64,000 nt of DNA from a virus (Duplodnaviria; Heunggongvirae; Uroviricota; Caudoviricetes): the IMG/VR virus record IMGVR_UViG_3300037466_003234. One strand, given 5' to 3'. Positions within the stretch are counted from its first letter, which is position 1, and each line of letters opens with the position of its first letter. Position numbers and translations under genes: made by a program. The notes under the pieces are model-generated. The model was not told where the DNA came from. It searched no databases and was given only the letters and a program-made list of their open reading frames with translations. Shown piece by piece: positions 3,179 through 41,620 of the stretch.

Positions 3179-3214
3179 TAAGCTTTGTTTTAGGAGTTGT
3201 GAGGAAGAGGGCTG

Positions 3215-3243
3215 TCCAGGGATGGACGGCCTTTTTCTTTTTA
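3215..3243 (+). terminator. putative intrinsic terminator
   Basis: GTCCAGGGATGGAC hairpin followed by GGCCTTTTTCTTTTT. Confidence 0.3.
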
Positions 3244-4092: not shown

Positions 4093-4511
4093 ATTCCTTC
4101 CTTGGCCTTTTTAACTGCTCGTATTGCGCTACTGGACAGATGAACCTTGTCTCTTCCAGAAATAATGTAAACGACCGGAATCTTGAGGCCTAGATCCTCG
4201 TACCAATATTGCTGGATCTTCTCGTCCTCAAAATCCTTAGTGTTTCTAAGGCCGCGAATAATAGCACAGGCGCCTACTTCAGCTGCGTAATCCGGTAGAA
4301 GGTAATTAAAGTGATGAACGCTGACTCTGTCCACGTATGACAAAGCGATGTCGAGCGGAAGAACGTTTTCAAAGTCAGGATAAGCATCCTTATCTGGATT
4401 AATTCCAGGGGCTACAATGACTTTGTCGAACATCTGAAGTGCAGCTAGTAAAACCTGCGTATGTCCGGCATGCCAGGGATTAAAGCTGCCAGGATAGATA
4501 GCGACTCTCAT
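4089..4511 (-). CDS. nucleotidyltransferase of the cytidylyltransferase superfamily (PPAT/CoaD-like or NMNAT-like)
   Basis: MRVAIYPGSFNPWHAGH carries the (H/T)xGH motif. MFDKVIVAPGINPDK, IIRGLRNTKDFEDE and ISGRDKVHLSSSAIR parallel CoaD MFDHVILAI / LIRGLRAVADFEYE / ISSSLVKE. The ATG overlaps the upstream stop (ATGA). Confidence 0.65.
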   Translation of the reverse strand: MRVAIYPGSFNPWHAGHTQVLLAALQMFDKVIVAPGINPDKDAYPDFENVLPLDIALSYVDRVSVHHFNYLLPDYAAEVGACAIIRGLRNTKDFEDEKIQQYWYEDLGLKIPVVYIISGRDKVHLSSSAIRAVKKAKEGI

Positions 4512-5011
4512 GACAGTAAGATCCCGATAATAAGATAGTGGGTTAAGTGATGAACGCCTTGGTCGAGGCCCAAGGCCCACCAAAAGTAGGTGTTTTCCTT
4601 GAGGCGCTGGCGTGCCCACGTAACCTTTTGCTTATATTCTTCACCGATAACAGCTACAGGCATATTGCCTTCAGCCATTTGAGCAACACCTGGGTAGCAA
4701 TTCGCATCCAAGGATTTATAACGACCAAGAAGGTTTGGGCTCGCTTTAATGCGATCCATAGCGAAATGTAGAACAAAATCTAGTAGACCAAGACCGATTG
4801 GCAGCAATTGATGGTCGTGAAGTTTGCCTGTAACAATGAGATAGAAAGAGGCAATGATCCACGTTCCAACTAGATGGACTAGGGCGTGCGCGGAGAGCGG
4901 TAAGATCCACTCACGTCCGCCCTTGAACTTCCCAAGCATGTAAGGGGTCTGCAAAGGATAGTCGCAAAAGAAGTGTTTAAGCTGAAACAGAACTAGAAGT
5001 AGGTAGATCAT
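4508..5011 (-). CDS. integral membrane protein
   Basis: Multiple hydrophobic helices (LLLVLFQL, LVGTWIIASFYLIVTG, WWALGLDQ...IIGILLS). Confidence 0.5.
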   Translation of the reverse strand: MIYLLLVLFQLKHFFCDYPLQTPYMLGKFKGGREWILPLSAHALVHLVGTWIIASFYLIVTGKLHDHQLLPIGLGLLDFVLHFAMDRIKASPNLLGRYKSLDANCYPGVAQMAEGNMPVAVIGEEYKQKVTWARQRLKENTYFWWALGLDQGVHHLTHYLIIGILLS

Positions 5012-5328
5012 TCTTCGTCATCCATTCCTGCCATAATCATGGCAAATTCGATATCGTCCACTGCCTTAGAGATGTTGAGCTTATAGGCTTCTAGCTGTTC
5101 TTTTGTAGCTACATAGGCTTTGCCGTGACTCGTGAGCACGACGGCGCCATTTTTCTCAACTACATAAGTGTCTTCCGTACCTTCTTTCTTATGAAAGAAT
5201 CTAACAGTGAAACCGTATTCATCGCACTCCCAGCCGGAGTAAAACATGCGAAAGGCTTGCACTTCATAGATTCTCTTATTGGGAAAGAGATCTTGAATTG
5301 CTGATACTGGAATTCTTGCGCTCTCCAT
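5008..5328 (-). CDS. hypothetical protein
   Basis: GGAG SD; ORF. Confidence 0.5.
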   Translation of the reverse strand: MESARIPVSAIQDLFPNKRIYEVQAFRMFYSGWECDEYGFTVRFFHKKEGTEDTYVVEKNGAVVLTSHGKAYVATKEQLEAYKLNISKAVDDIEFAMIMAGMDDEE

Positions 5329-5416
5329 TTTATAGCTCCGTCATTAAATTCGCGGTATAACGATTTTTCCGTGTTAATTGCGTTATATGCGACTTAATAC
5401 TCAATATAATTAACGC

Positions 5417-5716
5417 TCATCCTCTCATTGGATCGCCGTAATTATGGTTCACACACTTGTCACAGGCACATTCAAAATCGTGCTCTTCCTTACGCATTCC
5501 AACGAACTGAATCCTATGATTCTTGATGGTCGAAAGAGAGTTGATCAGCTGATCAATATCAAACCAACCGAGATTGGTTCCGCCTTCTCCTTCTTCGCCA
5601 AAGCGAAGCTGAACCATATTGTCACCACCATCCAGAGAATCGGTGCTAATGGAAAGTCCATCGTCACCCTTGTCGGCAGCAACATAGATCTTAATTTCAG
5701 TAAAAGTGCGGCTCAT
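5417..5716 (-). CDS. hypothetical protein
   Basis: GGAGG SD; ORF. Confidence 0.5.
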   Translation of the reverse strand: MSRTFTEIKIYVAADKGDDGLSISTDSLDGGDNMVQLRFGEEGEGGTNLGWFDIDQLINSLSTIKNHRIQFVGMRKEEHDFECACDKCVNHNYGDPMRG

Positions 5717-6129
5717 TTTTCCTCCACAAGTCTTGCAACTTCACATTTTTCCTTGTACTCCCAGGTCTTACCGATCTCAGCCGAAATAACTCTGCCGATA
5801 ACGGTCTTCATTGGATTCTTAATGTCATCGACCAAAATAACATCACCAATGCTAAGATTGCGGATTTCAGAGATGGCCTGGTCGCGAGAAGAGTAGATCC
5901 TCACGGAGCCCACATTATGGTCTTCATGATCAAAGTATGCGTGCCTTACATATTGCTCAACAGAGCCGTAAACTACGGAGGAGAACTTACGACCATCCTG
6001 AAGCTCGTATTCGATGCTGGTTGCACCAATATCTAACTCTTGAGTCTCGTAAACAATGTGATCTTTACGTTCTTTCTTAGGAACTTCGATCTTCTTTTCT
6101 TCAGTCTTATTTTTCTTTTTGAAAAACAT
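5713..6129 (-). CDS. hypothetical protein
   Basis: ATG at 6129 with GGAAGGAAA SD. TAATG overlap with the upstream gene. Confidence 0.5.
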   Translation of the reverse strand: MFFKKKNKTEEKKIEVPKKERKDHIVYETQELDIGATSIEYELQDGRKFSSVVYGSVEQYVRHAYFDHEDHNVGSVRIYSSRDQAISEIRNLSIGDVILVDDIKNPMKTVIGRVISAEIGKTWEYKEKCEVARLVEEK

Positions 6130-6449: not shown

Positions 6450-6995
6450 TTAACTCTTTTTGCGAGGGCCGGAATTGTCTTTCGAGGTCTTACCTTTATG
6501 GCAGGTATTGCAAATAGCCTGGTGATTATCAAGACCTAGGCTTTGTCCGCCCTTTGAAATGGGCACAATGTGATCAACTTCTATACGGCGCTCTTTGGGC
6601 ACCTTACCCTTAAGAAGCTTGATCATATACCAAGAAAACTCCTCTTTGAGGTCTGGAACCTTGAGATTTTTCTTGCGCATATAATCGCTAACTTGGTTAA
6701 CGAACGGCATGTAGTCAAATTGACACATGTTGCACTTATATTCTTGTCTTGCAAGAAGCGCGTTAAGTCCGTGCTCCTTTTGCGGATAGGCCCAAGCCAT
6801 GGCGCTATCGGAGCACTTTTGCGAACAGTATTTTCGCTGCCTTGATGTAAACGTTTGCTCGGCGCACCAGCAGCACTTGAAAAGCTTCTCTTCCGTCTCT
6901 ACCTTGATCGAGCGTAGCGATCCAAGGTGAATCGAGCGCTCGCGGCACGACTTCGTTAATTCCTCAATCTGCGGATTCCCAGGCTTCTTAAACAT
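6450..6995 (-). CDS. HNH endonuclease
   Basis: C-terminal EVDHIVPISKGGQSLGLDNHQAICNTCHKGKT is the HNH motif. Multiple CxxC. ATG at 6995; the track start is a TTG. Confidence 0.7.
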   Translation of the reverse strand: MFKKPGNPQIEELTKSCRERSIHLGSLRSIKVETEEKLFKCCWCAEQTFTSRQRKYCSQKCSDSAMAWAYPQKEHGLNALLARQEYKCNMCQFDYMPFVNQVSDYMRKKNLKVPDLKEEFSWYMIKLLKGKVPKERRIEVDHIVPISKGGQSLGLDNHQAICNTCHKGKTSKDNSGPRKKS

Positions 6996-7136
6996 CGTCA
7001 AACATCAGTAGGGCGTAAAAACATGTGCCTGCCATCAAACCTAAGAAAGCGTTTGTTGAAGGATGTTCGCAGTAATTACCTGCGGAAGAAAGTAAGAAGC
7101 AATAGGCGCAGAGCCATTTAAGGAACCTCTTTAGCT

Positions 7137-7328
7137 TTAGCACTCTTCGCACCTATCGCAGATATATCCCATCGGCATGACGACGTGCCCATTATGGCTC
7201 ATCAGCTCGAACGGCTGATCGCCGCAGGCAGCGCACTGAACCGGATGGTCATCGAAGTGCGTGCGCGGAAGGTTACTGTAAATTAACGAAAGGAGTTCTT
7301 CTTTTGAGAGTTCTGAGATCTTTTTCAT
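7137..7328 (-). CDS. small zinc-finger protein
   Basis: CAACGD...CDRCEEC Cys pairs. Confidence 0.45.
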   Translation of the reverse strand: MKKISELSKEELLSLIYSNLPRTHFDDHPVQCAACGDQPFELMSHNGHVVMPMGYICDRCEEC

Positions 7329-7329
7329 A

Positions 7330-7545
7330 TTAATCTCTTAATACGCAAACGCGGTAAAAACCCTTCTCGTCTTTGACAGGATAAAGACCGTTTGCGACAT
7401 TAACTTTGTACACGTACTTAATGTCTTGATCGTTCTCATGGCCGATCGAAACCCACATGCCGCGTTGGCCTGGGTTTGGATTCGTCTCAACTTCCTTAAG
7501 AATTAAAAGACCTTTTTTATCCTTTGCAAGCTTATAAAATCTCAT
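7330..7545 (-). CDS. hypothetical small protein
   Basis: ATG at 7545 with perfect AAGGAG SD (MRFYKLAKDKK...). Confidence 0.5.
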   Translation of the reverse strand: MRFYKLAKDKKGLLILKEVETNPNPGQRGMWVSIGHENDQDIKYVYKVNVANGLYPVKDEKGFYRVCVLRD

Positions 7546-7555
7546 AATTAACTCC

Positions 7556-7741
7556 TTAGTGGCACCAACAACGGCAGTCTGGGTTATCGCAGCACGGCTG
7601 AATAATGGACTCATACCAGGCTGTACATGAGGGGCATCTAACGTAATGCTGACCCGGAATATCTATATCAGTGTTCTCATCGTTACAGCGCCATTGACTT
7701 GAGTCGGACTCTTGTCCGCACTCGGGGCACTTCTGAAGCAT
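7556..7741 (-). CDS. Cys-rich zinc-binding small protein
   Basis: CPECG...CPSC...CCDNPDCRCWCH. Confidence 0.45.
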   Translation of the reverse strand: MLQKCPECGQESDSSQWRCNDENTDIDIPGQHYVRCPSCTAWYESIIQPCCDNPDCRCWCH

Positions 7742-8865
7742 TAGCCTCTATTCCTTTTGTAAAGCTCTGCAAGCGTTGCTGCGCTATTCTTTGTAATAAT
7801 ATCAGCTTTCACTTCGACTGTGTTATTGGCGATATTTTCTGAGCGCTTGTTTCGAACGATCGAATCCCTATAAAGTTCGGCTGCATTGCGGGCAGCTTCG
7901 TTAACAGTACGCACCGATTCCTTATAGGATTCAGAGTGTGCTTGAAGAAGCTCGTCTTGCGTAAGGCCAAATTGTACGTGAACAGTTTCAATATCGTACT
8001 TTGATGCTGGATCAACGCCGTCAAGGTACTTCGTCATACCTTCGTAGGTTGCGTATTTAACGCCTGGCACATGGCATGGGCTCTTTGGGCTCTGTAAGAA
8101 TTCGGCAAGCGAAATACCCAAAAGCTTTGGGATCTTCTTTGAATCTAGGAAAGGAAAGCAAAAGAGCGTGAACGTATTAAAGCCAGATCCGGTCTGGTCG
8201 GCCATGATCATCATGGATGGCATTGCCAAATGACCTAAGATCAGACCTTTATCGCTTAGGAGCTTGAGGTCATCAACTAAAGCTTGCTGAGCACGCTGAA
8301 GGTCTGGAGCCTCAAACGTAACAGATAGAAAAATAGCGGGCTCGACCCTGCGAATAGGATGGCCAACGTGAAGTAACGGCAGGAGCTTGATTTCATTCAA
8401 GCGATCCAAGTACTCGAATCGATTTTCGATCTTATAGAGGCCTGCGGCCTTCAAGCGGCGCTTGTTAATTAACGAGAACAGGGCGTTAATTGGCTTTGCA
8501 AGGACGCCAAGGATTCGGGCGCCGAAAGATGGATAGTCGGTGTATTGGTAAAGAACTGAATTGGACTTAACCTTTTCGAGGGCCTTTTTGATCTTCGGAT
8601 AGTCATCCAACATGACGGAGGCATCAACGATGTTGAGTAACTTGCCGTCGTTGCGACCGCTCGTAGAAGTAGGAAGGAACTTGACCTTCTCGCCTTCGGT
8701 CTTTTCGATAAACTCGGCTACGATCTCGGTCGGCGTCTTTCCAAGGATGTGCCCTTGGACGGCGTCAAGGCCGGAAAGCACATAGTGCCTAATCTTGTTC
8801 CCACCCATCTGGCGGGCAAAGCGCAGGGACAAATCTACTTGGGCTAAAGGACGAAGTTCGATCAT
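7741..8865 (-). CDS. hypothetical protein (374 aa)
   Basis: ATG at 8865 with GAGGTGA SD (the track start is a GTG). No family recognised by eye. Confidence 0.55.
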   Translation of the reverse strand: MIELRPLAQVDLSLRFARQMGGNKIRHYVLSGLDAVQGHILGKTPTEIVAEFIEKTEGEKVKFLPTSTSGRNDGKLLNIVDASVMLDDYPKIKKALEKVKSNSVLYQYTDYPSFGARILGVLAKPINALFSLINKRRLKAAGLYKIENRFEYLDRLNEIKLLPLLHVGHPIRRVEPAIFLSVTFEAPDLQRAQQALVDDLKLLSDKGLILGHLAMPSMMIMADQTGSGFNTFTLFCFPFLDSKKIPKLLGISLAEFLQSPKSPCHVPGVKYATYEGMTKYLDGVDPASKYDIETVHVQFGLTQDELLQAHSESYKESVRTVNEAARNAAELYRDSIVRNKRSENIANNTVEVKADIITKNSAATLAELYKRNRG

Positions 8866-22776: not shown

Positions 22777-22827
22777 TTGACGGAATTAACGGATAACAAT
22801 AGACTGAAATTAACGGAAGGGAATAAT

Positions 22828-24879
22828 ATGAAACTCGCAAGCCATAACAATAAACTGGAAACGAACATTCAAGACGCTGAAACCCAAAACTTCGGAATTG
22901 GTGATGCAAGCGTTGTCATTGAAATTCTGCGGAACCGGCTCTATGAACACAAGATCCAAACGCTTGTTCAAGAATATATCTGCAATGCTCGCGACGCAAT
23001 GCGTGAATGCGGCAAGGCTAACGAATTCGAAGTGACTTGCCCTACCTCTTTGAGCCCTGTTTTTAAGGTGCGTGACTTCGGTCCTGGCATCTCCCCTGAT
23101 CGCATGGCTAACGTCTTCATCAAGTACGGCGCTAGCACTAAGCGTGACTCTAATAATCAGACTGGCGGCTTCGGCATTGGCGCTAAAAGCGCTTGGAGCT
23201 ACACCGATAGCTTCACGATTGTGACCTATATTGACGGTAACAAGCGCACCTATGTCGCGCATACCGGAGTCAACAATAACGGACGCCTGGACCTTTTGAG
23301 CACTGCTGCTACCTCGGAACCAAATGGAACCGAAATTCAAGTTCCTGTCGGTCGCTATGACCTTGACGAATTCCGCAGAGCTATCTATCGCGCTGTTTAC
23401 TTCTGGGAGTCTCGCCCAACCCTTAAGGGCGGAAACCACGAGTTGCCTACGCTTGTTGGCGGCGAGCGCATTAGCGATCTCGTCGAAGTGATCGATTATA
23501 AGATGCTCCCTGCCTTCTTGAACGTTGATTACTACGACAACATGCTTGCCGTGATCGATGGCGTGCCATACATGATCACCTCCAAACTCATGGATAAAGT
23601 CAAAAAGCTTAAAGATCTCAAGCAATTGACCAAACGATTCATTGTATTGCACTTTGGAAATGGTCTTGTGGAAGTCTCTGCAAGCCGCGAGTCTATCGCT
23701 GACTCAAAGGCTACAGTCGAAGGCCTGGAAAAACTTGCAGCGCAGGGGGTAGTGGCAATTAAAACCAAGATCTCCAGCGACTTTTCAAAAGTGAAATCTA
23801 GCTCGGATTTCTTTAAGACCTACCTTGCAATGGAACCATACTTCCATGTGGACAAGCTTGCTAAGTATGACGTTTATCAAATCGATGGAGGCTATGTTAA
23901 AGCTGACCTGCTCCATAAGGTTTCGTTGACTCGCATGCATATGTGGGGAAGAAATAGCCGCGTCCAGGTCGATCGCATCACCAAAGAGCAATTCGATCAA
24001 AGACAAAAGCAAAATGGCATTCGTCTTCAATACCTGAATAACGTTTACTTTCTTCGCGCATCTGAAAACGCTATTATCCAAAATAAGCGTCTGCGCGAAA
24101 ACATTGGCCCTAACTTGCCAGAAGTGCTCTTGATCGAGCAACTGGGCGATAACTCTGCGGAATTTGAGAAGTTAATTTTGGATCTGAATGCTAAAGACTT
24201 CCAAACGCTGACCTACGTAGAAAAGCCAAGGGCTCCGCGTGTTAAGATCGAGCGCGATAAGCAAGAATTCTGCATCCATCAATTCTTGGGTGTAAGACAT
24301 CACTATACAAGTCTGGCAGATAACACAGATAAGTGGCTCTATATCCCAATGAGCGGCGGCAGTCTTACAAACTTCTCAAATGTGGACCTTAAAGACGTAG
24401 CTTATTTCGTTAAAGAAACTACTGGACTTATCGTCTGCGGGCTCTCTGAGAACGTTGTGGAGAAGGTGAAAGATAACGCAAATTTCTTGCCATTCTCCGA
24501 ATGGATCGCAAAATTTAAACCTACCGACAAACAAATGGCTTATGTTAAAATGATGGAAGGCAAGAATACCAGTGTCATGTCGATCCTTTCTAAGCTGAAA
24601 GGTCTTAAGGATAAGTTTATTCTTGAAATGATTGAGGAATATAAGGGTGCAGTGAGAAACGATTTTTCTGGCGATCCGGTCCCTAAAATGTTCCTTGAGC
24701 TTATCAAGAACAGTGAAGAATATAAGGAATTCGTCAACAAAGACGGTAAGTTGAAAGATCTTATTGGAAGCAAATATAGACTTCTGAGCATGCTCGATGA
24801 CTACTATTTTTCCAAATCGACAAAATACGCTGAAGAAATCGTTATTTATATGAACGCTAAACACAAGGCTAAGGCTTAA
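22828..24879 (+). CDS. rIIA: rIIA-like protein (GHKL/HATPase_c N-terminal domain)
   Basis: ATG with GGAAGGGAA SD (the track start is a TTG). N-box EYICNARDAM, G1 VRDFGPGIS, G2 GGFGIGAKS. About 680 aa, immediately upstream of rIIB. Confidence 0.8.
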   Translation: MKLASHNNKLETNIQDAETQNFGIGDASVVIEILRNRLYEHKIQTLVQEYICNARDAMRECGKANEFEVTCPTSLSPVFKVRDFGPGISPDRMANVFIKYGASTKRDSNNQTGGFGIGAKSAWSYTDSFTIVTYIDGNKRTYVAHTGVNNNGRLDLLSTAATSEPNGTEIQVPVGRYDLDEFRRAIYRAVYFWESRPTLKGGNHELPTLVGGERISDLVEVIDYKMLPAFLNVDYYDNMLAVIDGVPYMITSKLMDKVKKLKDLKQLTKRFIVLHFGNGLVEVSASRESIADSKATVEGLEKLAAQGVVAIKTKISSDFSKVKSSSDFFKTYLAMEPYFHVDKLAKYDVYQIDGGYVKADLLHKVSLTRMHMWGRNSRVQVDRITKEQFDQRQKQNGIRLQYLNNVYFLRASENAIIQNKRLRENIGPNLPEVLLIEQLGDNSAEFEKLILDLNAKDFQTLTYVEKPRAPRVKIERDKQEFCIHQFLGVRHHYTSLADNTDKWLYIPMSGGSLTNFSNVDLKDVAYFVKETTGLIVCGLSENVVEKVKDNANFLPFSEWIAKFKPTDKQMAYVKMMEGKNTSVMSILSKLKGLKDKFILEMIEEYKGAVRNDFSGDPVPKMFLELIKNSEEYKEFVNKDGKLKDLIGSKYRLLSMLDDYYFSKSTKYAEEIVIYMNAKHKAKA

Positions 24880-24902
24880 TAAGAAGGGAAAACGGAGGAA
24901 GT

Positions 24903-25799
24903 ATGAATAAAGTAAATTATCTGTGGTTGAAAGATTCCATTAATCTGAGCTTTGAAGGGAAGCATTTCACGATTTCAAGCGGCGATCCGCTCTTTGAAAA
25001 GGTTACGCAAGCGATCCGCGAACAGCGCTTGGAGGACATCCCAAGCATTGTGGACATCTCCAAAGACCTTAAGATTGCAGGCTTGGAGCTTAAAGACGGC
25101 GCTCTATACGATGGCGAAACGGCGCTCCCTGAAGCTCTTAACCGTCGCATCTTGGAATATCGCGACGGCGCTATTCCATATGACTCTCTGCTCAAGTTCT
25201 GGGAGAACGTGAAGAAAAACCCATCGTTCAATTCACGTCAAATGCTCTTCTCATTCCTAGCTCACAATGGACACCCTATCACTGAAGACGGATGTTTCAT
25301 TGCCTACAGAGGTGTCAGGGAAGACTTCAAAGATAAGCATTCTGGCACTTTTGACAATTCGCCAGGCTCCGTTTGCGAAATGCCTCGCGACCAAGTGGAC
25401 GACAACCCAAACAACACTTGCTCCAAGGGCTTGCACGTTGCATGCTTCGACTACGCCAAAGGCTTCGGCGCCAAGCTTGTCGAAGTGAAGGTCAACCCAG
25501 AAGACGTTGTTGCGGTTCCTACCGATTACAACGGCACCAAGATGCGCGTCTGTAAGTTCGAAGTGATCCAAGAGTGTGAGTCCATGAGAACTGAGACGCT
25601 CTATAACCACGGTATCAGTCGCGAAGAGCTTTGCGACGACGAGAGCGATGAGGATGGCTGCGAAGACTGTGGAGATTGCGAAGACTGCGATAAGAAAACG
25701 TTAGAAGATGGTAACTGCCCTGAATGCAGAGATGACGTTGAAAGTGACGACGCATTCTGCAAGCACTGCGGCACCGATCTGGACCAGTATCGCGGATAA
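24903..25799 (+). CDS. rIIB: rIIB-like protein
   Basis: HSGTFDNSPGSVCEMPRDQVDDNPNNTCSKGLHVAC...VEVKVNPEDVVAVPTDYNGTKMRVCKFEV aligns with T4 rIIB HSNTFDNTPGKVVKMPRTRVNDDDTQTCSRGLHVCS...VKVKVHPRDVVSIPIDYNDAKMRTCQYEV. GGAGGAAG SD. Confidence 0.85.
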   Translation: MNKVNYLWLKDSINLSFEGKHFTISSGDPLFEKVTQAIREQRLEDIPSIVDISKDLKIAGLELKDGALYDGETALPEALNRRILEYRDGAIPYDSLLKFWENVKKNPSFNSRQMLFSFLAHNGHPITEDGCFIAYRGVREDFKDKHSGTFDNSPGSVCEMPRDQVDDNPNNTCSKGLHVACFDYAKGFGAKLVEVKVNPEDVVAVPTDYNGTKMRVCKFEVIQECESMRTETLYNHGISREELCDDESDEDGCEDCGDCEDCDKKTLEDGNCPECRDDVESDDAFCKHCGTDLDQYRG

Positions 25800-28923: not shown

Positions 28924-29018
28924 CAGTAATCGTTAGATAGCCTATAAGGCCTCCAAAGAATTAACTTGCCAAAGCTGACCAATTATGTCAGACTCTTTGG
29001 AACCATTGGAGGTTATAG

Positions 29019-29561
29019 ATGGAAGAACTGACGAACGTTACTGAAACCCAAAAAGTAGAAGAACAAGAGTCCAAAGAAAATAAGTTTAGCGACCATCTGG
29101 TTTTCCTAGGCCTGTTGAGTCGAGACGAAAAGGGATCTCTAGTATTCACAGATCTTGGCAAGCGGACCCTAAGAACTCTCCGGTTCCTTGACGGTAAGAT
29201 CAATTACATTAAGAATGGCAGCAAGAAGGTTAAAGCCATTAAGAAAGCTCCTCTTAAGCGTAATAAGAAGACTGTCATGCATATTAAATACAAGGCGGGA
29301 GCTAAGCCTGTCAGACGCTCTGCCAGACCGCTTAATTTGCGTCAGAAGGGGCCTATCTTTAACCATAGGCTGGCTACCTTCATCTTTGCCAATCACGCCA
29401 AGGAACTCGTTTCTAAGCTCAATAAGGGCAAGGTAGACGCTACTATCCGGCCAACCCTGGATGGCAAGCGGAGCCATGTGATCATCCCTTACAGCAAAGT
29501 CCACGAGGCCCTGCCGATCCTTAAGGCGTTCCGCGAATCTGCCAAGGCTGGTGCAGCATGA
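29019..29561 (+). CDS. hypothetical basic protein
   Basis: GGAGG SD. Lys-rich. Confidence 0.55.
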   Translation: MEELTNVTETQKVEEQESKENKFSDHLVFLGLLSRDEKGSLVFTDLGKRTLRTLRFLDGKINYIKNGSKKVKAIKKAPLKRNKKTVMHIKYKAGAKPVRRSARPLNLRQKGPIFNHRLATFIFANHAKELVSKLNKGKVDATIRPTLDGKRSHVIIPYSKVHEALPILKAFRESAKAGAA

Positions 29562-29851
29562 AGAGCGTTAAAATTAAGGCGAAGGAGAAGCCAGAGATAC
29601 ACGTATTCGTCTACATGGAACAAAAGAGGGCCGAGGAACTTAGGCCTATCATTATGGGCATGGCCCAAGCCAATGCGGGCGAGTGGAATGGAGAAGGAAC
29701 CGACGGTAAAGAGTTCGATGTAAGCTTTACCTTCAAGAGCCAAATCAAAGCTAACGAGTTTGCCGAGAGGGCCAAGAAGCTTGCCATCAGAGAGGTCAGC
29801 TTAAGCCTGTGGGATGGAAACCGGCATAGTACGGTACCTACCCTACATTAG
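29558..29851 (+). CDS. hypothetical protein
   Basis: ATGA overlap coupling. Confidence 0.5.
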   Translation: MKSVKIKAKEKPEIHVFVYMEQKRAEELRPIIMGMAQANAGEWNGEGTDGKEFDVSFTFKSQIKANEFAERAKKLAIREVSLSLWDGNRHSTVPTLH

Positions 29852-30351
29852 CTCTCAAAACCACCCTCGGACTCTTCGCGTTCGAGGTAGCTTAAATTAA
29901 CGTAGCCCCCCTTGGGTAAATTATCCTTGGGGGGTTCGTCTTTTTCAGGAGTGTTTTTTTGATCGGGAACGCCAAGTAAGGTTGTCTCTTTAGCCAAGGC
30001 AGGATGGATAGGCTTACCGGACTCCAAGCGCAAGCGCTCTTCTTCCTCAGCCTGTTCCGCAAATGCGTCAAACTCTTCTTTCTTAATGGACTCGTACTCT
30101 GGATCTTCAATGGAATAGATACGATCCATAAGAACGTCTAGGTTATCGTCAATATCGATATCCTCTAGGTCGTCCTCGAAATAGTTCAAAATGACAAATT
30201 CTGGAGACAATTCCATTACTTGGTGCAATGGCGTATTAAACCTTTTAGAGTAGGCCCTGCATATTTTTCGATAAACGCTTTCAGCGGTTGGCGAAAGTAA
30301 ATTTGCGATTGCCTGCGCTCTCAGCGCATCGGCCAAGTCTTGGAAGTCCAT
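29848..30351 (-). CDS. acidic hypothetical protein
   Basis: GGAGGAG SD. Second gene of a 2-gene minus-strand operon. Confidence 0.55.
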   Translation of the reverse strand: MDFQDLADALRAQAIANLLSPTAESVYRKICRAYSKRFNTPLHQVMELSPEFVILNYFEDDLEDIDIDDNLDVLMDRIYSIEDPEYESIKKEEFDAFAEQAEEEERLRLESGKPIHPALAKETTLLGVPDQKNTPEKDEPPKDNLPKGGYVNLSYLEREESEGGFES

Positions 30352-30833
30352 TACTCCTCCGAACTATCGGAGTCTTCGTCTTCGTCAGCCTTATTGGCAA
30401 GGAAACTCTCAGCGGCCTTCTTAGCTCTTTCGATCGCGTCTTTCTTCTGCTTATCCTTCTCTTGCTTATACTTAAGCTGAGCATCGCCAGCAGCGTTAAG
30501 AACTTGAGTGATCACGTTCACGTCAGGGATGTCACCTGCTATACCACTAGCAGGGATGGTCGCAGTCCAAAAAGGAGGAGCAGAGATAACCCTTTGTTCT
30601 AATTGCGATAAAGCATAAGCCATGAAGCTCTCGTGCTCATCTGCAGCAAAAGGATTTGCACCAAGTAGTTCCCTATGCTTACGGCCAGCAGCGATTACCT
30701 GCGTAGGCGTTAAATAGCAGCGAAACTTGAACGTTCCTGCGTAGGTACCGTGGATATCACCCTCAGCCCTTAGCTGCCAGGTAGCCACGTCACCATCAAT
30801 TGAAATGTCGCTAAAATCTTTTTTATCAGCCAT
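30351..30833 (-). CDS. hypothetical protein
   Basis: ATG (MADKKDFSD...) with AGAGGAA SD; the track start is a GTG. Confidence 0.55.
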   Translation of the reverse strand: MADKKDFSDISIDGDVATWQLRAEGDIHGTYAGTFKFRCYLTPTQVIAAGRKHRELLGANPFAADEHESFMAYALSQLEQRVISAPPFWTATIPASGIAGDIPDVNVITQVLNAAGDAQLKYKQEKDKQKKDAIERAKKAAESFLANKADEDEDSDSSEE

Positions 30834-31105
30834 AGAGTTAATTCCTCTAACCAAGGGTATCGTAGCTGATATATCATAGCGTTAAAAGCCAAGGAAAAGC
30901 TTCCGCTAACTTTTTGCTAATATAATTATTATAATTAAATTATAGTAACTGTATTGAGTGAATAAATTCGTAAGAACAACTCACTCTCGTGAGGTGTATC
31001 ATATCTTTTTTTAAAAAATGAAAGAAAACGACAAAAAAAGAAAATTTATTTTTGCTATTGTCTTATTTTCTTAAATCAACTATCCTTATGCGAATAGGAG
31101 TAAAT

Positions 31106-32983
31106 ATGGATTTAAATACACTTTTTAGCATCGGTCTACACTACGGTGTTTACCTCATTGGTTTTATTGCGTTTTTGGTTTTGGTCTACAAGGCTCTTGG
31201 CATTGTAGTTATCGGTGAATCCGAAGTTGGTGTTGTTACTAAGAAAATTTCTAATAGGAATCTTCCTCCAGGTCGCGTCATTGCTACGAACGGCGAAGCT
31301 GGCGTTCAAGCTGATACGTTGAGCCCTGGTATGCACTTTGGCTACTGGCCATTTGTTTACAAGGTTGACTTGGCACCGCTTACGAGCATTGCTCCAGGCG
31401 AAATTGGCCTAGTGATGGCAATCGATGGTAATCAGATCCCAGCCAATCGCTTGCTTGGCCAAGGTGTTGATTGTGATAACTTCCAGTCCGCAAAGGCTTT
31501 CTTGGCTAATGGCGGTGAAAAAGGTAAGCAACTTGCTATCTTGACCGCTGGTAAGTATCGTATCAACCCAGCATTGTTTAAGATCGTAACGGCTCCTGTA
31601 ACCGTTATCGCTGCAAATCAAGTCGGTATCGTTACAACCTCTGACGGTGTACCTCTGGAACAAGGCGAAATCGCAGCGGCAACCGTTCCTGGCCACAATA
31701 ACTTCCAAGATATTCAGAAGTTCATTGATGCTGGTGGCAAACGCGGTCTTCAAGAGCAAGTTATCTTGGCAGGTCAATGGAACTTGAATCCATGGTTTGC
31801 TCAAGTAAAGACGGTTCCAATGACGAACGTGCCAATCGGACACGTAGGCGTTGTGACCTCTTACGTTGGTAAAGCTCACGTCGATATCTCTGGCTCTGAA
31901 TTCAAGCACGGCGACCTTGTGGACCAAGGCCATAAGGGTGTTTGGGCAAAACCTCTCTATCCTGGCTTGCATCCGATCAATACGGACACTATGAAAGTGG
32001 ATCTCGTCCCTACGACCAACGTCGTCCTTAACTGGGCAACAAATCGTAACGAATCCCATATGCTCGACAAGAACTTGTCTAGCATCACGGTTCGTTCGAA
32101 AGACGGATTCAGCTATAACCTCGACGTTTCTGTGGTTATTCACATCGGCGCTATGGAAGCCGCTCGCGTGATCTCTCGCATGGGCAGCATGTCTGGCCTT
32201 ATCAGCCAAGTCCTTGAGCCTACGATTGGTAACTACTTCAGAAACTCTGCACAAGAGTTCGCAGCCTTGGACTTCCTCAAGACTCGTACTGAAATGCAAC
32301 AAAATGCCGCTCACTTCGTTCATGAAGCTTTGAAGCAATATGACGTGGAAGCTGTCGATACCCTTATTGGCGATATCGTTCTCCCACAACAATTGCTTGA
32401 AACTCAGACACAACGTAAGCTTGCTGAAGAAATGCAAAAGACCTATGAGATCCAACAAGCTTCTCAGAAACAGAAAGAGGCTCTCAATCGCCAAACTGCT
32501 GTGACTGAAATGCAAAAGGATCTTGTGGCCTCTGAACAAGCTGTTAAAATTGCTCAGCAAAACGCAGAAGCAAGCATTCGTAAGGCAGAAGGTGATACCA
32601 AGGTCGCTGAACAGCAAAGCTTGCAAAAGATTCGTCTTGCTGAAGCTGAAGCTGCTCAGATCCAAAAGAAAGCTCTTGCTGAAGCTGAAGGCCTCAAGGC
32701 TCGCGGCTTGGCAGAAGCAGAAGCGATCAAGGCTAAAGGTAACGCCCAAGCTGAAGCATATCAAAACGGCGCTAAAGCAATGGGTGAAAAGAACTTCACC
32801 ATGCTCGAAACTATGTCCGTCATGGCTAAGGAAAAGATGAAGGTCATCCCAGACCTCGTAGTCAATGGCGGTGGTGAAGGCGGTGGAAGCGGCACCGGTC
32901 TCAGCATGCTCAACTTGCTGATGGCTGAAATGGTTAAGGAAAAGTTTCTTGATCCTAAACAGGAAAAGAAAACGACTGCCTAA
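31106..32983 (+). CDS. flotillin-like SPFH/band-7 membrane protein (FloT/YqiK-like)
   Basis: N-terminal TM helix LHYGVYLIGFIAFLVLVY. Long SPFH-like region. C-terminal Ala/Glu flotillin repeats AEAEAAQIQKKALAEAEGLKARGLAEAEAIKAKGNAQAEAYQ. AGGAG SD. Confidence 0.75.
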   Translation: MDLNTLFSIGLHYGVYLIGFIAFLVLVYKALGIVVIGESEVGVVTKKISNRNLPPGRVIATNGEAGVQADTLSPGMHFGYWPFVYKVDLAPLTSIAPGEIGLVMAIDGNQIPANRLLGQGVDCDNFQSAKAFLANGGEKGKQLAILTAGKYRINPALFKIVTAPVTVIAANQVGIVTTSDGVPLEQGEIAAATVPGHNNFQDIQKFIDAGGKRGLQEQVILAGQWNLNPWFAQVKTVPMTNVPIGHVGVVTSYVGKAHVDISGSEFKHGDLVDQGHKGVWAKPLYPGLHPINTDTMKVDLVPTTNVVLNWATNRNESHMLDKNLSSITVRSKDGFSYNLDVSVVIHIGAMEAARVISRMGSMSGLISQVLEPTIGNYFRNSAQEFAALDFLKTRTEMQQNAAHFVHEALKQYDVEAVDTLIGDIVLPQQLLETQTQRKLAEEMQKTYEIQQASQKQKEALNRQTAVTEMQKDLVASEQAVKIAQQNAEASIRKAEGDTKVAEQQSLQKIRLAEAEAAQIQKKALAEAEGLKARGLAEAEAIKAKGNAQAEAYQNGAKAMGEKNFTMLETMSVMAKEKMKVIPDLVVNGGGEGGGSGTGLSMLNLLMAEMVKEKFLDPKQEKKTTA

Positions 32984-33009
32984 ACTGTCAAATCCATAGA
33001 CACTCTGAA

Positions 33010-33044
33010 GGGCGGCCTAAAAAAGGTCGCCCTTTTTATTTTGG
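33010..33044 (+). terminator. intrinsic terminator
   Basis: GGGCGGCC-taaaaaa-GGTCGCCC then TTTTTATTTT. Confidence 0.6.
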
Positions 33045-33125
33045 TAATTACGAAAATAAGGATGTTGCAAATACGAAAATAAGGCGCTAAAGTGGATAAT
33101 ATAAGTCAGCTACTTGGAGGATAAA

Positions 33126-33392
33126 ATGAAAGAATTAAATAGCGCCGGATACGATCTCTCGGAAGTGTCTGAAAATGAATGGATCTTTAGCGTTCGCGGT
33201 GGCAGCCTTTACGTTGGCTCGTTCCTGCAGATCGTTATGATCATGGTCATGAAATTTGGCTTTCATATTGATAATGTTGATGAAGCTATCAAAGAGATGG
33301 TTAAAAAAGATAAGGATTCCGTTCACTTTGGAATGTATGGAACCATGATCTACCCTTACAATAGGGAAGATAACCTCAAGAAGGTGAGCTAA
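33126..33392 (+). CDS. hypothetical protein
   Basis: GGAGGA SD. Confidence 0.5.
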   Translation: MKELNSAGYDLSEVSENEWIFSVRGGSLYVGSFLQIVMIMVMKFGFHIDNVDEAIKEMVKKDKDSVHFGMYGTMIYPYNREDNLKKVS

Positions 33393-33610
33393 TGAGCCTC
33401 AGATTGATTAAGGGTGGTGCCCAACAAAACAGTAATGGTAGGGTCTTAAAGGACGGCCAATACACTCCCCATGAGCCACGTAAGCTCGATAAGGGGCCAG
33501 CTATCGATCCAGCTATTGAATCGCTAAAGAATAATTTACAAACCCTAAATTCTCTTCACGCTAAGCTTAAACATATGATAGAAGAACTTAGGGAGTTAGT
33601 AAGAGAATGA
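33392..33610 (+). CDS. hypothetical protein
   Basis: Coupled start. Confidence 0.5.
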   Translation: MSLRLIKGGAQQNSNGRVLKDGQYTPHEPRKLDKGPAIDPAIESLKNNLQTLNSLHAKLKHMIEELRELVRE

Positions 33611-33858
33611 ACGTCGGTATCCAAGTTCTTAAAGTAATGCATTATGGACCAACAGAAGAGGACAACCGTATGGTGACTATCTCACCGGTTAACGTTCTCA
33701 TGCTCGCGGCTCCATTGGTTTATGAGCGCATCCAAGATCGTGAAGTTAAGCGTGTTACCGTCCTTATGATTGACGGTGGCGAGACCGAGGTCTGTATCAA
33801 TGATATGGATCTAGATCAGCTAGAGCAAGCTGTAGGCGCTTACGGATTGCCTTATTAG
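33607..33858 (+). CDS. hypothetical protein
   Basis: Coupled start. Confidence 0.5.
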   Translation: MNVGIQVLKVMHYGPTEEDNRMVTISPVNVLMLAAPLVYERIQDREVKRVTVLMIDGGETEVCINDMDLDQLEQAVGAYGLPY

Positions 33859-33861
33859 TGG

Positions 33862-34136
33862 TTTGTGGGTGTTATGGTCAGACTCGACCGCCGAGGGCCA
33901 AGGTAGCGCTTTAAACTGGCCCATAGCGAAGATGCCTAGATAGGTATTTCTAGGGACAGCCTCTTCGGCCCACATTTAACTTAGTACATGGCCTAATATA
34001 GGTGCGTGGCAAGCCGGTACAGTTGGAACACTTGAGTCTTAAGCTGAGGGATAAAGGATCGCAACCCCCAAAGCCGCGAGGCCCGCTAGATTCCACGCCG
34101 TAGCTGTGTTATCCCGAGCGGTGGGCGAAGTCGGGG
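33862..34136. other. GC-rich structured non-coding region (ncRNA candidate)
   Basis: About 275 nt with no ORF, higher GC than the surroundings, several short stems (GGTC...GACC, CTTCGG). Confidence 0.2.
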
Positions 34137-34517
34137 TTATTCTTTATCAATCATCTTAGTTAAAAGAGAGACCATCTGACTGAACTGGCCTCTTAGCTCA
34201 GTTCTTAGGTCTTCTATCTTATCGCCAAGATTGCGGATTTCGCCATTGTAGGTCTCGCGGACGTGAGAGAAGTCTTTTTCCACGGATTCCTTGAAGTTAG
34301 AGAGTTCGGCGTCTAAGGCCATGATTTTAGACTCTAAAGCCGCCTTAATTTTGGCGTCTTCTTCTTTGGCCTTTTGGAGTAGGGCAGCTTCGGCCACTTT
34401 ACGTTGCTTGGTGTGGTCCGCGTTAATTTTGCGGATTTTCATATAAGCGCCAGCCACGGTAGAAACCATAGCGGCAAGTGATGCGATTGTCGTAAGGTTG
34501 ATATTTCCGGTTTCCAT
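34137..34517 (-). CDS. membrane-anchored coiled-coil protein
   Basis: N-terminal hydrophobic segment TIASLAAMVSTVAGAY. Lone minus-strand gene; weak SD. Confidence 0.4.
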   Translation of the reverse strand: METGNINLTTIASLAAMVSTVAGAYMKIRKINADHTKQRKVAEAALLQKAKEEDAKIKAALESKIMALDAELSNFKESVEKDFSHVRETYNGEIRNLGDKIEDLRTELRGQFSQMVSLLTKMIDKE

Positions 34518-34584
34518 GGCTTGCTTGGCCCTCTCACTAAAAGATTACTGTAAAGCTATGATATATAGGGTTTTAGAGGTCTTT

Positions 34585-34893
34585 ATGAAAGAGAAAGTAG
34601 CCGAATTCATCAATGTTATCTTTGGGTTCCGCAAGTTCATTATTATGTTACTTGCAATGCTCATCGCTATTATTTTCAGAATGAAAGGCCTTATTAACGG
34701 CGAAAATATGGTTGATTTGCTTAAGGCAACAATCATCTCCTTCTTTGGTGCCAATGGTGTCGAGCATATCATGGCAGTGGTTAAGGACTATGCTGCAGCT
34801 AAGGGTCAAAAAATTGCCGGAGAGGCTTTGGTAGGCCCGGACCAAATCGATGAGGCCGAAGAAGCTAAGGCTGAGGAGAAGAGCAATGAGTGA
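34585..34893 (+). CDS. holin-like small membrane protein (2 TM, charged C-terminus)
   Basis: AGAGG SD. FIIMLLAMLIAIIF and LLKATIISFFGANGV. C-terminus DQIDEAEEAKAEEKSNE. Confidence 0.4.
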   Translation: MKEKVAEFINVIFGFRKFIIMLLAMLIAIIFRMKGLINGENMVDLLKATIISFFGANGVEHIMAVVKDYAAAKGQKIAGEALVGPDQIDEAEEAKAEEKSNE

Positions 34894-35188
34894 GAAACTT
34901 AAGGCGTATTATAACGCCGCTAAAGCTAACGTTGTAGCCTTTGTGCAAGCCAACAAGGCGATTTTAATTGGCTTTCTGTCTATTTTAGCCGTTTTTAAGT
35001 TTAGAGACTTCTTGATGGATCTGTTGCTCAATAGCGCTAAGCGCATTGGTCAGCAAGCCCAGGAAAAAGACAAGGTTCTAGCGGAGCAGGAAAGTAATGC
35101 AAACACACAAGCGAATCACCTTATTGAGCAGGCTGAGAAAGCTAAAGAAGAAACGCCCCAAGCAGACGAAAACTGGTACAAAAAATGA
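34886..35188 (+). CDS. type-II membrane protein with coiled coil (i-spanin-like)
   Basis: GAGGAGAAGAG SD. TM ILIGFLSILAVF followed by a charged helical region. Confidence 0.4.
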   Translation: MSEKLKAYYNAAKANVVAFVQANKAILIGFLSILAVFKFRDFLMDLLLNSAKRIGQQAQEKDKVLAEQESNANTQANHLIEQAEKAKEETPQADENWYKK

Positions 35189-35302
35189 GAAGAAATAAGC
35201 TCTTAATGGCGATTGGCATTTTCATATGCCTATACGCGTGCTGGAATAGGCTTGCAGCCCATTACCAGCAGGTCATTGAGAACAAAAGTACAAGGTGTCC
35301 AA

Positions 35303-35695
35303 ATGAAAAAATTTATTGCGGCAATCCTGATCGCTAACGTCATGTCTAATGCAGCTTTTGCTGAATGCGACTTTAAGACTGGTATTACCGCGAACCAAGA
35401 CGGTTCGTATACTTATACTAAGGAATGTCACGTTAAAGTAGGTCAGATGAAGAATGACCTTGAGACCGCCCAAAAGCAATTGGACAACCTTGGTCAGGCC
35501 ATTACGCTTAAGGATCTAGCCCTTCAGAAGTCTGATGATCGCGTAAATCTTTGGATGCAGACCTCCAGTCAATTGGAAGATCGCATTACAAAGCTTGACT
35601 CTATGCAGAAGCATAACGAGTGGATCTACTTCGGACTTGGCGTTTTAACTACCCTTGGCGCAGGCTTTATGACTGCGAGGATTTTAGGGAAGTAA
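35303..35695 (+). CDS. protein with N-terminal signal peptide and C-terminal TM anchor
   Basis: AAGGTG SD. MKKFIAAILIANVMSNAAFA signal. C-terminal WIYFGLGVLTTLGAGFMTARILGK. Confidence 0.5.
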   Translation: MKKFIAAILIANVMSNAAFAECDFKTGITANQDGSYTYTKECHVKVGQMKNDLETAQKQLDNLGQAITLKDLALQKSDDRVNLWMQTSSQLEDRITKLDSMQKHNEWIYFGLGVLTTLGAGFMTARILGK

Positions 35696-36179
35696 GGTAG
35701 TTAAACACGTCTAGCGGCGTCATGTCGTCCAGATCTCTAGGTAGCTGTGCTCCTGCGTATTGCTGAAGAATGTAAGAAGCAAGCTCTGAGCAAACATAAG
35801 TCTGCCCTTCATCTTGGAATGGATTTGTTATCTTTCTGCCGAGAAGCTCGTTGATCCTTACCCAGGCCATTCCAAAGATCTGTTTAACGCCATAAGGCTT
35901 GCCAGCGTTATCGATGGCAAATTGCACCATGGCTGTTTTGTTCTCTTCAGTGATATCTACTTCGAATTCGTCTACGATGACGTTTTCCGATAGAAACTGA
36001 GCGTCACCCATGAAATTAACCATGAGCTTGCTCGCTTGATAGATCAAATTTCGACCATACTTATCAGAACGATATTTGATGTAGACGTGATCGTATGGGA
36101 TATTGAACGCAACCATGATAAGCCAAGCAAAAGGCTTCCATTTGTTTGGCTTTGAGAATCCTACTAGAATCTTTTCCAT
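35667..36179 (-). CDS. hypothetical protein (possible permuted papain-like hydrolase)
   Basis: Last gene of the tail module. QTYVCSELASY is weakly NlpC/P60-like; speculative. Confidence 0.5.
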   Translation of the reverse strand: MEKILVGFSKPNKWKPFAWLIMVAFNIPYDHVYIKYRSDKYGRNLIYQASKLMVNFMGDAQFLSENVIVDEFEVDITEENKTAMVQFAIDNAGKPYGVKQIFGMAWVRINELLGRKITNPFQDEGQTYVCSELASYILQQYAGAQLPRDLDDMTPLDVFNYLTSLKSSQS

Positions 36180-36180
36180 G

Positions 36181-36642
36181 TTAAACCCCTAAGTATGCCT
36201 TGATCTTGTTGACGTATTTTTCAATTCTTGCTTTAGGAACGAGAGCATCTGGAGGGGTAGCTTCCATAATAGCTATGGCCGTATATAGAGATCCTGCTTC
36301 TAGCGCAGCTTTTGCCCCTGCAAATTTGGTAAGGATCTGAACGATTTGGATAGGGTTGTAGCCCAAAACAATATTTTCTACGCCAACCTCAATAATTATG
36401 GATCTGCCAAAGTCCATAGCGTCTTGAATGGTTCGAGTGATGCCAGGCACTTTTTGATTATGGTCCATAACTACTTGGTAGATTCTGTTCACTTCGCCCT
36501 GCGATAAATCTCTATAGGTGTTAACTGTAAGAATATTACCGTTAACGTCCATAGATGAAATCCAAGAGGAGATGCCAGCTAGTTGCATTTCCTGGGTCAA
36601 AGTGTTCTGATCAATATGTTTGACGTAAGTATAAGTTGCCAT
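36181..36642 (-). CDS. hypothetical protein (possible tail-fibre assembly/chaperone)
   Basis: Immediately downstream of the tail fibre gene. Confidence 0.45.
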   Translation of the reverse strand: MATYTYVKHIDQNTLTQEMQLAGISSWISSMDVNGNILTVNTYRDLSQGEVNRIYQVVMDHNQKVPGITRTIQDAMDFGRSIIIEVGVENIVLGYNPIQIVQILTKFAGAKAALEAGSLYTAIAIMEATPPDALVPKARIEKYVNKIKAYLGV

Positions 36643-41543: not shown

Positions 41544-41620
41544 TGGCGCACTCCCTGAGACTCGAACTCAGCGCTTACGGTTTAACAGACCGTCTTCTCC
41601 ACCCGGTAGAACTGGAGTGC
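41544..41620 (-). tRNA. tRNA-Asn (GTT)
   Basis: Acceptor GCACTCC/GGAGTGC. Anticodon loop CTGTTAA. T-loop TTCGAGT. CCA encoded. Confidence 0.8.

Follow-up and report, generated by a model that had tools for sequence, protein, structure and literature searches.

The 64,000-nucleotide stretch analysed here, hereafter the window, comes from IMG/VR virus record IMGVR_UViG_3300037466_003234. It represents 64 kb of a phage of about 171 kb, and our scans for paralogues, lysogeny genes and neighbouring genes cover this portion of the genome. Its phage nature is documented by genes encoding rIIA, rIIB, a tail sheath, a major head protein and NAMPT. Near its middle, the plus strand carries the gene studied in this work (the SPFH gene), whose product is shown by the analyses below to be an intact single-pass membrane protein of the SPFH/Band-7 superfamily and to belong to a distinct and largely undescribed subfamily. 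A preliminary description of this DNA, made from the sequence alone, had presented it as a phage-encoded flotillin of the FloT/YqiK type. The features of the gene and of its product, with coordinates given in the window and residues (aa) in the protein, are the following.

30855..31105, plus strand: AT-rich intergenic region of 251 bp separating the SPFH gene from the divergent genes upstream, presumed promoter site
31096..31100, plus strand: Shine-Dalgarno sequence AGGAG, 5 nt before the ATG, read directly in the sequence
31106..32983, plus strand: coding sequence, with its stop codon, of the 625-aa membrane-anchored protein of the SPFH family (open reading frame, Band_7 match, identical protein P0001 on record)
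31121..31198, plus strand: N-terminal transmembrane helix, about aa 6-31 (hydropathy; modelled as a helix over aa 3-31)
31202..31387, plus strand: beta module R1, aa 33-94 (hhalign of R1 against R3, probability of 77%, E 2e-5; BLASTP self-matches; predicted local distance difference test score, pLDDT, of 85-90)
31388..31606, plus strand: beta module R2, aa 95-167 (short helix and GGxKGxQ loop; match to the repeat hidden Markov model, HMM, over aa 95-166)
31607..31828, plus strand: beta module R3, aa 168-241 (duplicate of R2; hhalign; repeat HMM over aa 168-241)
31829..32020, plus strand: beta module R4, aa 242-305 (the beta portion at the start of the Band_7 match)
31829..32467, plus strand: Pfam Band_7/SPFH domain (PF01145), aa 242-454 (alpha/beta core modelled over aa 325-425)
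32387..32590, plus strand: long helix, aa 428-495, that follows the SPFH core (AlphaFold2 model; end-to-end Foldseek matches to the major vault protein, MVP)
32633..32782, plus strand: Ala/Glu-rich coiled coil, aa 510-559 ('RLAEAEAAQIQKKALAEAEGLKARGLAEAEAIKAKGNAQAEAYQ' from aa 510; modelled helix aa 517-559)
32834..32980, plus strand: C-terminal tail, aa 577-625 (conserved 'IPD..VNGGG' motif, Gly-rich linker, short amphipathic helix)
33007..33045, plus strand: intrinsic terminator (12-bp stem with 7 GC pairs, 5-nt loop, T-run; stem-loop 33007-33035)

The open frame extends over 31052..32983 on the plus strand, and translation from the ATG at 31106, preceded by the Shine-Dalgarno sequence, yields the 625-aa protein already proposed in the preliminary description. 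A variant of this phage (L004/L008; 97.7% identity) encodes exactly the same product, and the single amino-acid difference that a longer, 643-aa reading of the frame displays with respect to this variant is situated upstream of that ATG, so that 31106 is the likely start. The hairpin with its 12-bp stem and T-run begins 24 nt past the stop codon, in keeping with the terminator previously assigned to the gene. As for the AT-rich promoter region that had also been attributed to it, the composition is as announced (72.5% A+T in 30855-31105 vs 54% for the window), but a consensus scan of this region reveals no sigma-70 -35/-10 pair, and a promoter proper to the SPFH gene is suggested only by the fact that the upstream genes are transcribed divergently. 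When 41 upstream regions were examined for enriched k-mers, two motifs emerged, AATTAACG and ACGAAAATAAGG, with a possible role as promoters or regulatory elements of the phage. Both are absent upstream of the SPFH gene and give no clue to its expression timing. AATTAACG is present in 8 upstream regions. The 12-mer ACGAAAATAAGG is found twice, 23 nt apart, at 33050-33084, immediately past the terminator of the SPFH gene and ahead of the gene that follows, as well as at 12459, 13761, 10860 (minus strand) and 50782 (minus strand); with at most one mismatch, it is encountered 6 times in the window vs 0.47 expected.

At the protein level, the stretch encompassing about aa 5-41 is the sole strongly hydrophobic segment (Kyte-Doolittle above 1.6) and is present in all aligned relatives, which agrees with the N-terminal membrane anchor foreseen in the preliminary description, the helix itself spanning aa 3-31. 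Charges are unevenly distributed on both sides of this helix, the mean number of Lys and Arg over 144 family members being 0.09 in the 15 residues before it and 2.39 in the 15 residues after it. Four tandem beta modules follow, made up of the ~210 residues that precede the Band_7 match and of its own first ~65 residues. As judged from their sequences, R2 and R3 are clearly duplicates of each other (hhalign probability 98.6%, E 1.4e-15), while R4 has weak similarity to R1-R3 (hhalign E 2e-3 to 7e-3), and no Pfam model matches the R1-R3 region at E<=10. The SPFH-like core, for which the lack of any profile match had been envisaged as fatal to the initial assignment, is recognized by Band_7 well above the cutoff of this model (81.8 bits vs 23.6, E 8.4e-23). 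The EA-rich C-terminal repeats mentioned previously are recovered as the Ala/Glu-rich coiled coil starting at aa 510, the stretch quoted in the preliminary description occupying aa 510-556. In the C-terminal tail, P582 is invariant in the family alignment A1, and a helix is modelled at aa 600-614 in a region of low pLDDT.

A word-index search retrieved at least 8,000 candidates, all at E<=1e-3. Among the matches listed, the window's own clade comprises at least 46 proteins at 60-100% identity, and beyond this clade come bacterial proteins that are 51-56% identical over about 90-95% of the length. These bacterial relatives are annotated as 'SPFH domain-containing', 'band 7' or 'flotillin family' proteins and are encoded in ordinary chromosomal contexts. 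Counting one genome per species, a relative at 49-55% identity is found in at least 587 bacterial species, including members of the Verrucomicrobiota, Cyanobacteria, Bacteroidota, Chloroflexota, Bdellovibrionales, Haliangiales and Armatimonadota. Two contigs of the window's clade look like phage DNA, with densely packed small open reading frames (ORFs), a T4-type RNA ligase, PNKP and a ribonucleotide reductase. In IMG/VR, 35 viral contigs harbor the gene, 2 of them in the window's clade and 33 in a second clade at 46-52% identity, hereafter the jumbo-phage clade, many contigs of which measure 250-676 kb. Within 50,697 deposited phage records, one close and seven distant relatives were detected. 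The statement that such genes are uncommon in phages is only partly true. An SPFH gene in a phage is as such not new, since lists of SPFH/Band-7 ORFs in T4-like phages date back to 2006 (PMC1524935) and such proteins are common in BFVD, with about 25 viral models, and constitute a PHROG family.

A neighbor-joining tree (distance method, midpoint rooting, biased sampling) shows each viral clade to be monophyletic and the window's clade to group with bacterial sequences, not with the jumbo-phage clade. This topology points to at least two old acquisitions or to a very deep viral history. In a 239-kb contig of the Chitinophagaceae metagenome-assembled genome UBA4407 (L117), the ORF 3947-5866 encodes a protein whose N-terminus (…YKFILRVFFGMVIVPENRIGLVTKKF…) is almost identical to that of the jumbo-phage clade; this is either a phage contig binned into the genome or a pointer to a Bacteroidota host or donor of this clade.

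The beta modules have a distribution of their own. When the repeat region (aa 33-241) was searched alone against 1.84 billion cluster representatives, 1,644 matches were obtained at E<=1e-3, of which 872 reached E<=1e-10, the best ones belonging to much longer proteins. Among the top 150 representatives, the repeat HMM delineates from 1 to 13 tandem copies of about 72 aa, two copies being the commonest situation, as in the phage protein. Among the long relatives, five match Band_7, in every case on the C-terminal side of the repeats, and three of the five also contain a C-terminal von Willebrand factor A (VWA) domain. This variable copy number and constant position identify the beta module as an expandable unit inserted between the anchor and the SPFH core. 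At the upper end, P0121, P0122 and P0123 (1,638-1,802 aa) consist of 11-13 tandem modules, then Band_7, then VWA; Pfam recognizes nothing in a P0138-type protein of 875 aa with 9 repeats.

Comparison of the window with the variant contig (L004/L008) revealed that the 41 differences in the 1,878-nt gene are all synonymous and all at third positions. Ratios of nonsynonymous (dN) to synonymous (dS) divergence are of 0.06-0.15 where measurable, more distant phage copies (dN 0.15-0.32) giving no usable ratio because dS is saturated. The 34 recovered IMG/VR copies are full-length (565 aa for one whose contig ends at the gene, 605-661 aa for the others), save one truncated by a contig end. The G+C content of the gene (0.472) and that of its third codon positions (0.460) equal the phage's own averages. 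Such copies do not correspond to the recent host-derived fragment with frameshifts whose possibility had been raised together with the initial assignment, and the fact that no bacterial homologue exceeds about 56% identity among the matches listed indicates that the gene was not recently captured. Between phage and bacterial proteins, identity amounts to 58-72% in the repeats, 62% in the SPFH core and 37-49% in the coiled coil. Taken at the sequence level, these data show a gene under purifying selection and constrained along its whole length.

The structure of the protein was modelled as a monomer by AlphaFold2 using a 35-sequence family alignment as input. The model (mean pLDDT of 73, predicted template modelling score, pTM, of 0.51, pLDDT of 85-93 across most of the repeat region) comprises, in this order, the transmembrane helix, a beta-rich part (aa 34-310), an alpha/beta core (aa 325-425) and a 68-residue helix (aa 428-495), then, beyond a break where prediction is poor, three further helices (aa 517-559, 561-576 and 600-614). 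The model thus displays an SPFH fold of the alpha/beta type with a long coiled-coil helix after it, the aa 428-495 helix being the equivalent of the CC1 helix of SPFH cages or of the cap helix of MVP. In a Foldseek search of the PDB with this model, ranks 1 to 12 are all occupied by full-length MVP (E 3e-11 to 7e-9, 646-800 aligned columns), followed by prohibitin, erlin, stomatin, HflK/C and QmcA, flotillin appearing at ranks 41-45; crystal structures of the isolated R1-R7 part of MVP are also matched (E 6e-5). At the level of predicted structure, the beta repeats, the SPFH 'shoulder' and the long helix match MVP end to end, the C-terminal half also matching SPFH cage proteins, and the model reproduces the MVP layout, in which tandem beta repeats precede an SPFH-like shoulder and a cap helix. 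The MVP shoulder is a recognized SPFH domain, and true MVP homologues are found in a few bacteria and in Asgard archaea (10.1101/872010, PMC3762200, PMC12962969). Furthermore, Daly et al. reported that one bacterial 'band 7' protein (Herpetosiphon A9AUD4) threads onto MVP. The resemblance of the phage protein to MVP is structural only.

Every SPFH assembly solved (HflK/C, QmcA, flotillin, prohibitin, erlin, stomatin and the vault) is a closed dome of parallel CC1 helices, with a subunit number equal to 0.1782 x CC1 length + 10.22 (PMC12624060). On this basis, we consider it on balance probable that the phage SPFH protein forms a membrane-anchored homo-oligomeric dome, which might work as a scaffold organizing the membrane or sequestering membrane proteins. 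By analogy with these assemblies, the long helices would drive self-assembly into a closed homo-oligomeric dome, and the transmembrane helices would anchor it in the host inner membrane, on the cytoplasmic side. This orientation is suggested by the positive-inside distribution of Lys and Arg and by the signal-peptide-like N-terminus of the cyanobacterial homologues, and a single type of subunit by the fact that no second SPFH gene or paralogue was found in the window. With the CC1 relationship, the 68-aa helix would correspond to about 22 subunits, a figure that would rise to as many as about 34 should the helix continue without interruption to aa 559. A higher wall of the dome would result from the extra beta modules, giving rise to a half-vault whose open end would be closed by the membrane with no second half-shell, and the dome would fence off a membrane patch together with the protein domains projecting from it. 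More speculatively, the protein would act as a scaffold and not as an enzyme, by which the phage could keep the host membrane organized and energized during a long infection cycle or sequester particular membrane proteins. Organization or stabilization of the membrane, or sequestration of membrane proteins, during infection is the role that we favour; superinfection exclusion or counter-defence is compatible with it, and control of FtsH is less likely.

Several observations weigh against such a dome of vault-like build. Neither the repeats nor the C-terminus of the protein match Pfam Vault or MVP_shoulder at E<=10. The family profile A1 run against PDB sequences retrieves no MVP, only weak matches to QmcA, flotillin, erlin and HflC, and the 34-sequence repeat profile A2 gives no meaningful match to PDB sequences and no MVP. 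Global TM-scores to MVP are low (0.17-0.32), because relative domain orientations differ. The model is that of a monomer with a pTM of 0.51, and its pLDDT falls below 50 at aa 490-520 and 576-625, which makes helix length and subunit number uncertain; both the dome assembly and the number of its subunits are thus predictions from a monomer model. The topology argument is a rule of thumb, the charged flank including the conserved KK of the first beta strand. The genomic environment offers no clue either, since the window neighbours (29019-36642) have no informative Pfam or PHROG match and clustering of 35 phage and 80 bacterial loci disclosed no partner gene conserved beyond lineage-specific synteny. 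Finally, according to a recent paper, the reason for the presence of an SPFH gene in a phage genome 'remains unclear' (PMC13239085).

Among the other explanations, the most resilient is that of a membrane-level conflict device that, through caging or occlusion, would keep out superinfecting phages or neutralize host abortive-infection effectors directed at the membrane. It is compatible with the cage model, and the retention of the gene in two large-phage lineages, in variable 'accessory' regions, speaks for it, as does its position 5.3 kb downstream of rIIA/rIIB. In the jumbo-phage clade (L009-L041, +/-6 kb), the NAMPT gene lies beside the SPFH gene in 22 loci, and genes encoding NADAR, NadR-like AAA_28, phosphoribosyl pyrophosphate (PRPP)-synthase-like, nucleoside deoxyribosyltransferase-like and DUF1937 proteins are also encountered, a neighbourhood that looks like an NAD-salvage/ADP-ribose block. 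Phages use NAD-salvage-type genes against NAD-depleting defences. However, the association of the SPFH gene with NAD genes may be plain shared synteny among related phages, the PADLOC-DB defence models recognize no family at E<=1, and the bacterial homologues reside in housekeeping contexts, not in defence islands. Altogether, we hold a dedicated conflict device to be rather unlikely.

The protein could also be, as initially proposed, a bona fide flotillin, that is a FloT/YqiK orthologue obtained from a host and organizing 'raft-like' microdomains with an NfeD partner. The labels attached to these sequences go in this direction ('YqiK' at JGI for the protein itself, 'flotillin family protein' at NCBI for some homologues), and an EA-rich coiled coil indeed follows the SPFH domain and aligns weakly with flotillin-2 (E 0.024), the FloT model and YqiK. 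The Synechocystis protein Sll1021 has been termed a flotillin homologue in the literature (PMC9950537). Nevertheless, Pfam Flot (PF15975) has no match in the phage protein, whether at E<=1 over the whole sequence or at E<=10 on the C-terminal 186 residues (aa 440-625), nor in four relatives, when the Escherichia coli YqiK control reaches 139.8 bits (E 6e-41). The NCBIfam FloT equivalog (NF058507) gives 18.7 bits for a cutoff of 700, and the BLASTP match to YqiK is confined to low-complexity coiled coil (30% over 178 aa). Three extra modules separate the transmembrane helix from the start of Band_7, at aa 242 vs aa 39 in YqiK. A Pfam scan for NfeD/DUF1449, which covered the window neighbours, representative conserved neighbours of the phage loci and one Hymenobacter neighbour, found no such partner, whereas yqiJ lies directly upstream of yqiK in E. 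coli. Added to the lack of a recent capture and to the rank of flotillin below MVP, prohibitin, erlin, stomatin, HflK/C and QmcA in the structure search, these results lead us to conclude that the phage SPFH protein is not a flotillin in the strict sense, and the corresponding scenario is unlikely.

A third possibility is an HflK/HflC-like modulator of host FtsH that would alter the turnover of membrane or regulatory proteins. HflKC affects lambda CII. A weak match to the hflC model TIGR01932 (E 0.005) fits with this idea, and the taller predicted wall could enclose the cytoplasmic domains of a membrane complex. Yet this match scores 15.7 bits for a cutoff of 134.4; HflK/C is a periplasmic hetero-oligomer of two paralogues, whereas the window has a single gene whose product is predicted to face the cytoplasm; and no lysogeny genes were detected near the SPFH gene in the 64 of about 171 kb analysed, all of which renders this role very unlikely. 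As to a functionless passenger gene or an annotation artefact, a view that could invoke the fact that function is known for no phage SPFH protein, it is extremely improbable and, at the sequence level, effectively refuted by the selection data, the gene having only synonymous differences (41/41), a Shine-Dalgarno sequence, a terminator, a composition fully ameliorated to the phage average and an intact frame in every recovered copy of two viral clades diverged to 46-80% identity.

Turning to the surroundings of the gene, the SPFH gene is within +/-10 kb the sole gene common to the window and two other members of its clade. Pfam has no match for an 87-aa transmembrane ORF situated upstream in six jumbo-phage loci, nor for a 136-aa ORF upstream in Hymenobacter. 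In 14 cyanobacterial genomes (L050, L054, L056, L058, L066, L082 and others), a conserved neighbour of 271-685 aa displays by eye kinase-like motifs; it is located directly downstream of the SPFH homologue in one example checked (L094), and this lineage-specific synteny is not found in other phyla. In the window, three small ORFs at 34137-35188, 1.2 kb downstream of the SPFH gene, encode proteins of 126 aa (minus strand) and of 131 and 112 aa (plus strand) that are predicted to be membrane-anchored or coiled-coil and could be assigned to no family. They could be lysis-related (holin- or spanin-like), no endolysin being identified nearby.

The window phage is a myovirus related to Myxococcus phage Mx1, its nearest cultured relative, with a collinear structural module and 55% identity of the major capsid protein (MCP). 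Megablast of positions 29000-35000 against the 50,697 phage records gave no match, and the SPFH protein has no match in Mx1. Host assignment was without result because the bacterial homologues of the SPFH protein, all 49-56% identical, are spread over many phyla and because Mx1, whose host is Myxococcus, shares only 55% MCP identity. The rIIA (700 aa) and rIIB (298 aa) homologues lie at 22777-25799, 5.3 kb upstream of the SPFH gene; in T4, rIIA and rIIB are membrane-associated anti-exclusion genes. The NAMPT gene is at 61937-63397. ARAGORN predicts eight tRNAs in the window, six of which are confirmed by Rfam, as well as, beside a tRNA-Ala, a tRNA-like element (60958-61029) of undetermined identity with a 2-nt 'anticodon'; neither this element nor a tRNA-Asn (41544-41620) is called by Rfam above threshold. 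A guess that this odd element and the ORF 59251-60753 constitute a Ro60/Y-RNA pair was rejected, since the ORF matches the Mx1 prohead protease and the Rfam hits are tRNAs only. This ORF (500 aa), which also has a weak match to the PHROG head maturation protease, covers just the N-terminal ~225 aa of the 1,239-aa Mx1 'prohead protease', so that this part of the head module differs in length from that of Mx1. In Mx1 (L045), a VWA-domain protein and a TROVE-domain (Ro60/TEP1-like) protein are annotated (2812-3465 and 6915-8564). Both domain types also exist in vault accessory proteins, which is probably a coincidence.

SPFH proteins are now known as closed domes over membrane patches, and the purpose of these domes is still debated. 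The phage gene represents a compact, strongly conserved and stand-alone example that large phages have long kept, and for these reasons its knockout in a phage offers a tractable probe of what such cages are for. The literature searched contains no description of a widespread transmembrane-anchored SPFH subfamily with a variable-number beta repeat outside Pfam, nor of its predicted end-to-end resemblance to MVP, nor of its long-term retention in two large-phage lineages. If the predicted structure is true, this widespread subfamily, which would combine the MVP architecture with a membrane anchor, bears on the evolution of the vault from membrane SPFH cages, and cage height would be tunable by repeat number. 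The vault has been described as an apparent exception among SPFH complexes, being devoid of membrane association (PMC12624060). Given this status, a membrane-anchored protein of vault-like build would be a notable intermediate. A bolder version, which we deem rather improbable, would see in this family of putative half-vaults, with walls raised by 1-13 duplicated beta modules, the missing intermediate between membrane SPFH cages and the free vault, captured at least twice by large phages to enclose and hide specific membrane complexes in the course of infection, and the enclosed complexes could then be defence effectors, proteases or DNA-entry sites.

The closest known counterparts of the phage protein are bacterial proteins of 600-740 aa (such as Hymenobacter nivis P0086, Fischerella P0097 and Prosthecobacter L046), which have the same full-length architecture (49-56% identity, about 90-95% coverage) with Band_7, starting about 245-320 aa in, as their sole Pfam domain, and are true family members. 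No experimental study of them was found in the literature searched. Most cellular members differ from both viral clades by an insert of about 13 aa between R2 and R3, and cyanobacterial members possess an extra signal-peptide-like N-terminal extension. Other viral SPFH proteins are known in the T4-like phages 44RR, Aeh1 and RB43, in Vibrio phages Kuja and 207E48.1, in Rhizobium phage Pasto and in mimivirus-like viruses, and the Streptomyces phage 'band-7-like membrane protein' is a further virus-encoded SPFH membrane protein. The phage SPFH entries of BFVD (173-431 aa) are without the repeat extension, and identity to the window protein falls to about 22% for those of the Vibrio phages. The sole functional datum found is a mild toxicity on overexpression of the mycobacteriophage Band-7-like protein LeBron gp49 (PMC13148394).

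With respect to cellular systems, the phage protein shares with YqiK/FloT an N-terminal anchor, an SPFH domain, a long EA-rich coiled coil, a Gly-rich C-terminus and a probable cytoplasmic orientation, while YqiK differs from it by the presence of Flot (PF15975), a Band_7 domain directly after the anchor (aa 39-192) and the adjacent yqiJ. QmcA-YbbJ (the E. coli SPFH-NfeD 26-mer cage) and the HflK/C 24-mer are made of subunits of about 300-420 aa with no extra beta modules and work with NfeD or FtsH, neither of which was found as a partner of the phage protein. MVP is a soluble protein with no membrane anchor that pairs two half-shells into a membrane-free particle, whereas the phage SPFH protein has only four modules and carries a conserved transmembrane helix at the very place where MVP has its waist-forming N-terminus.

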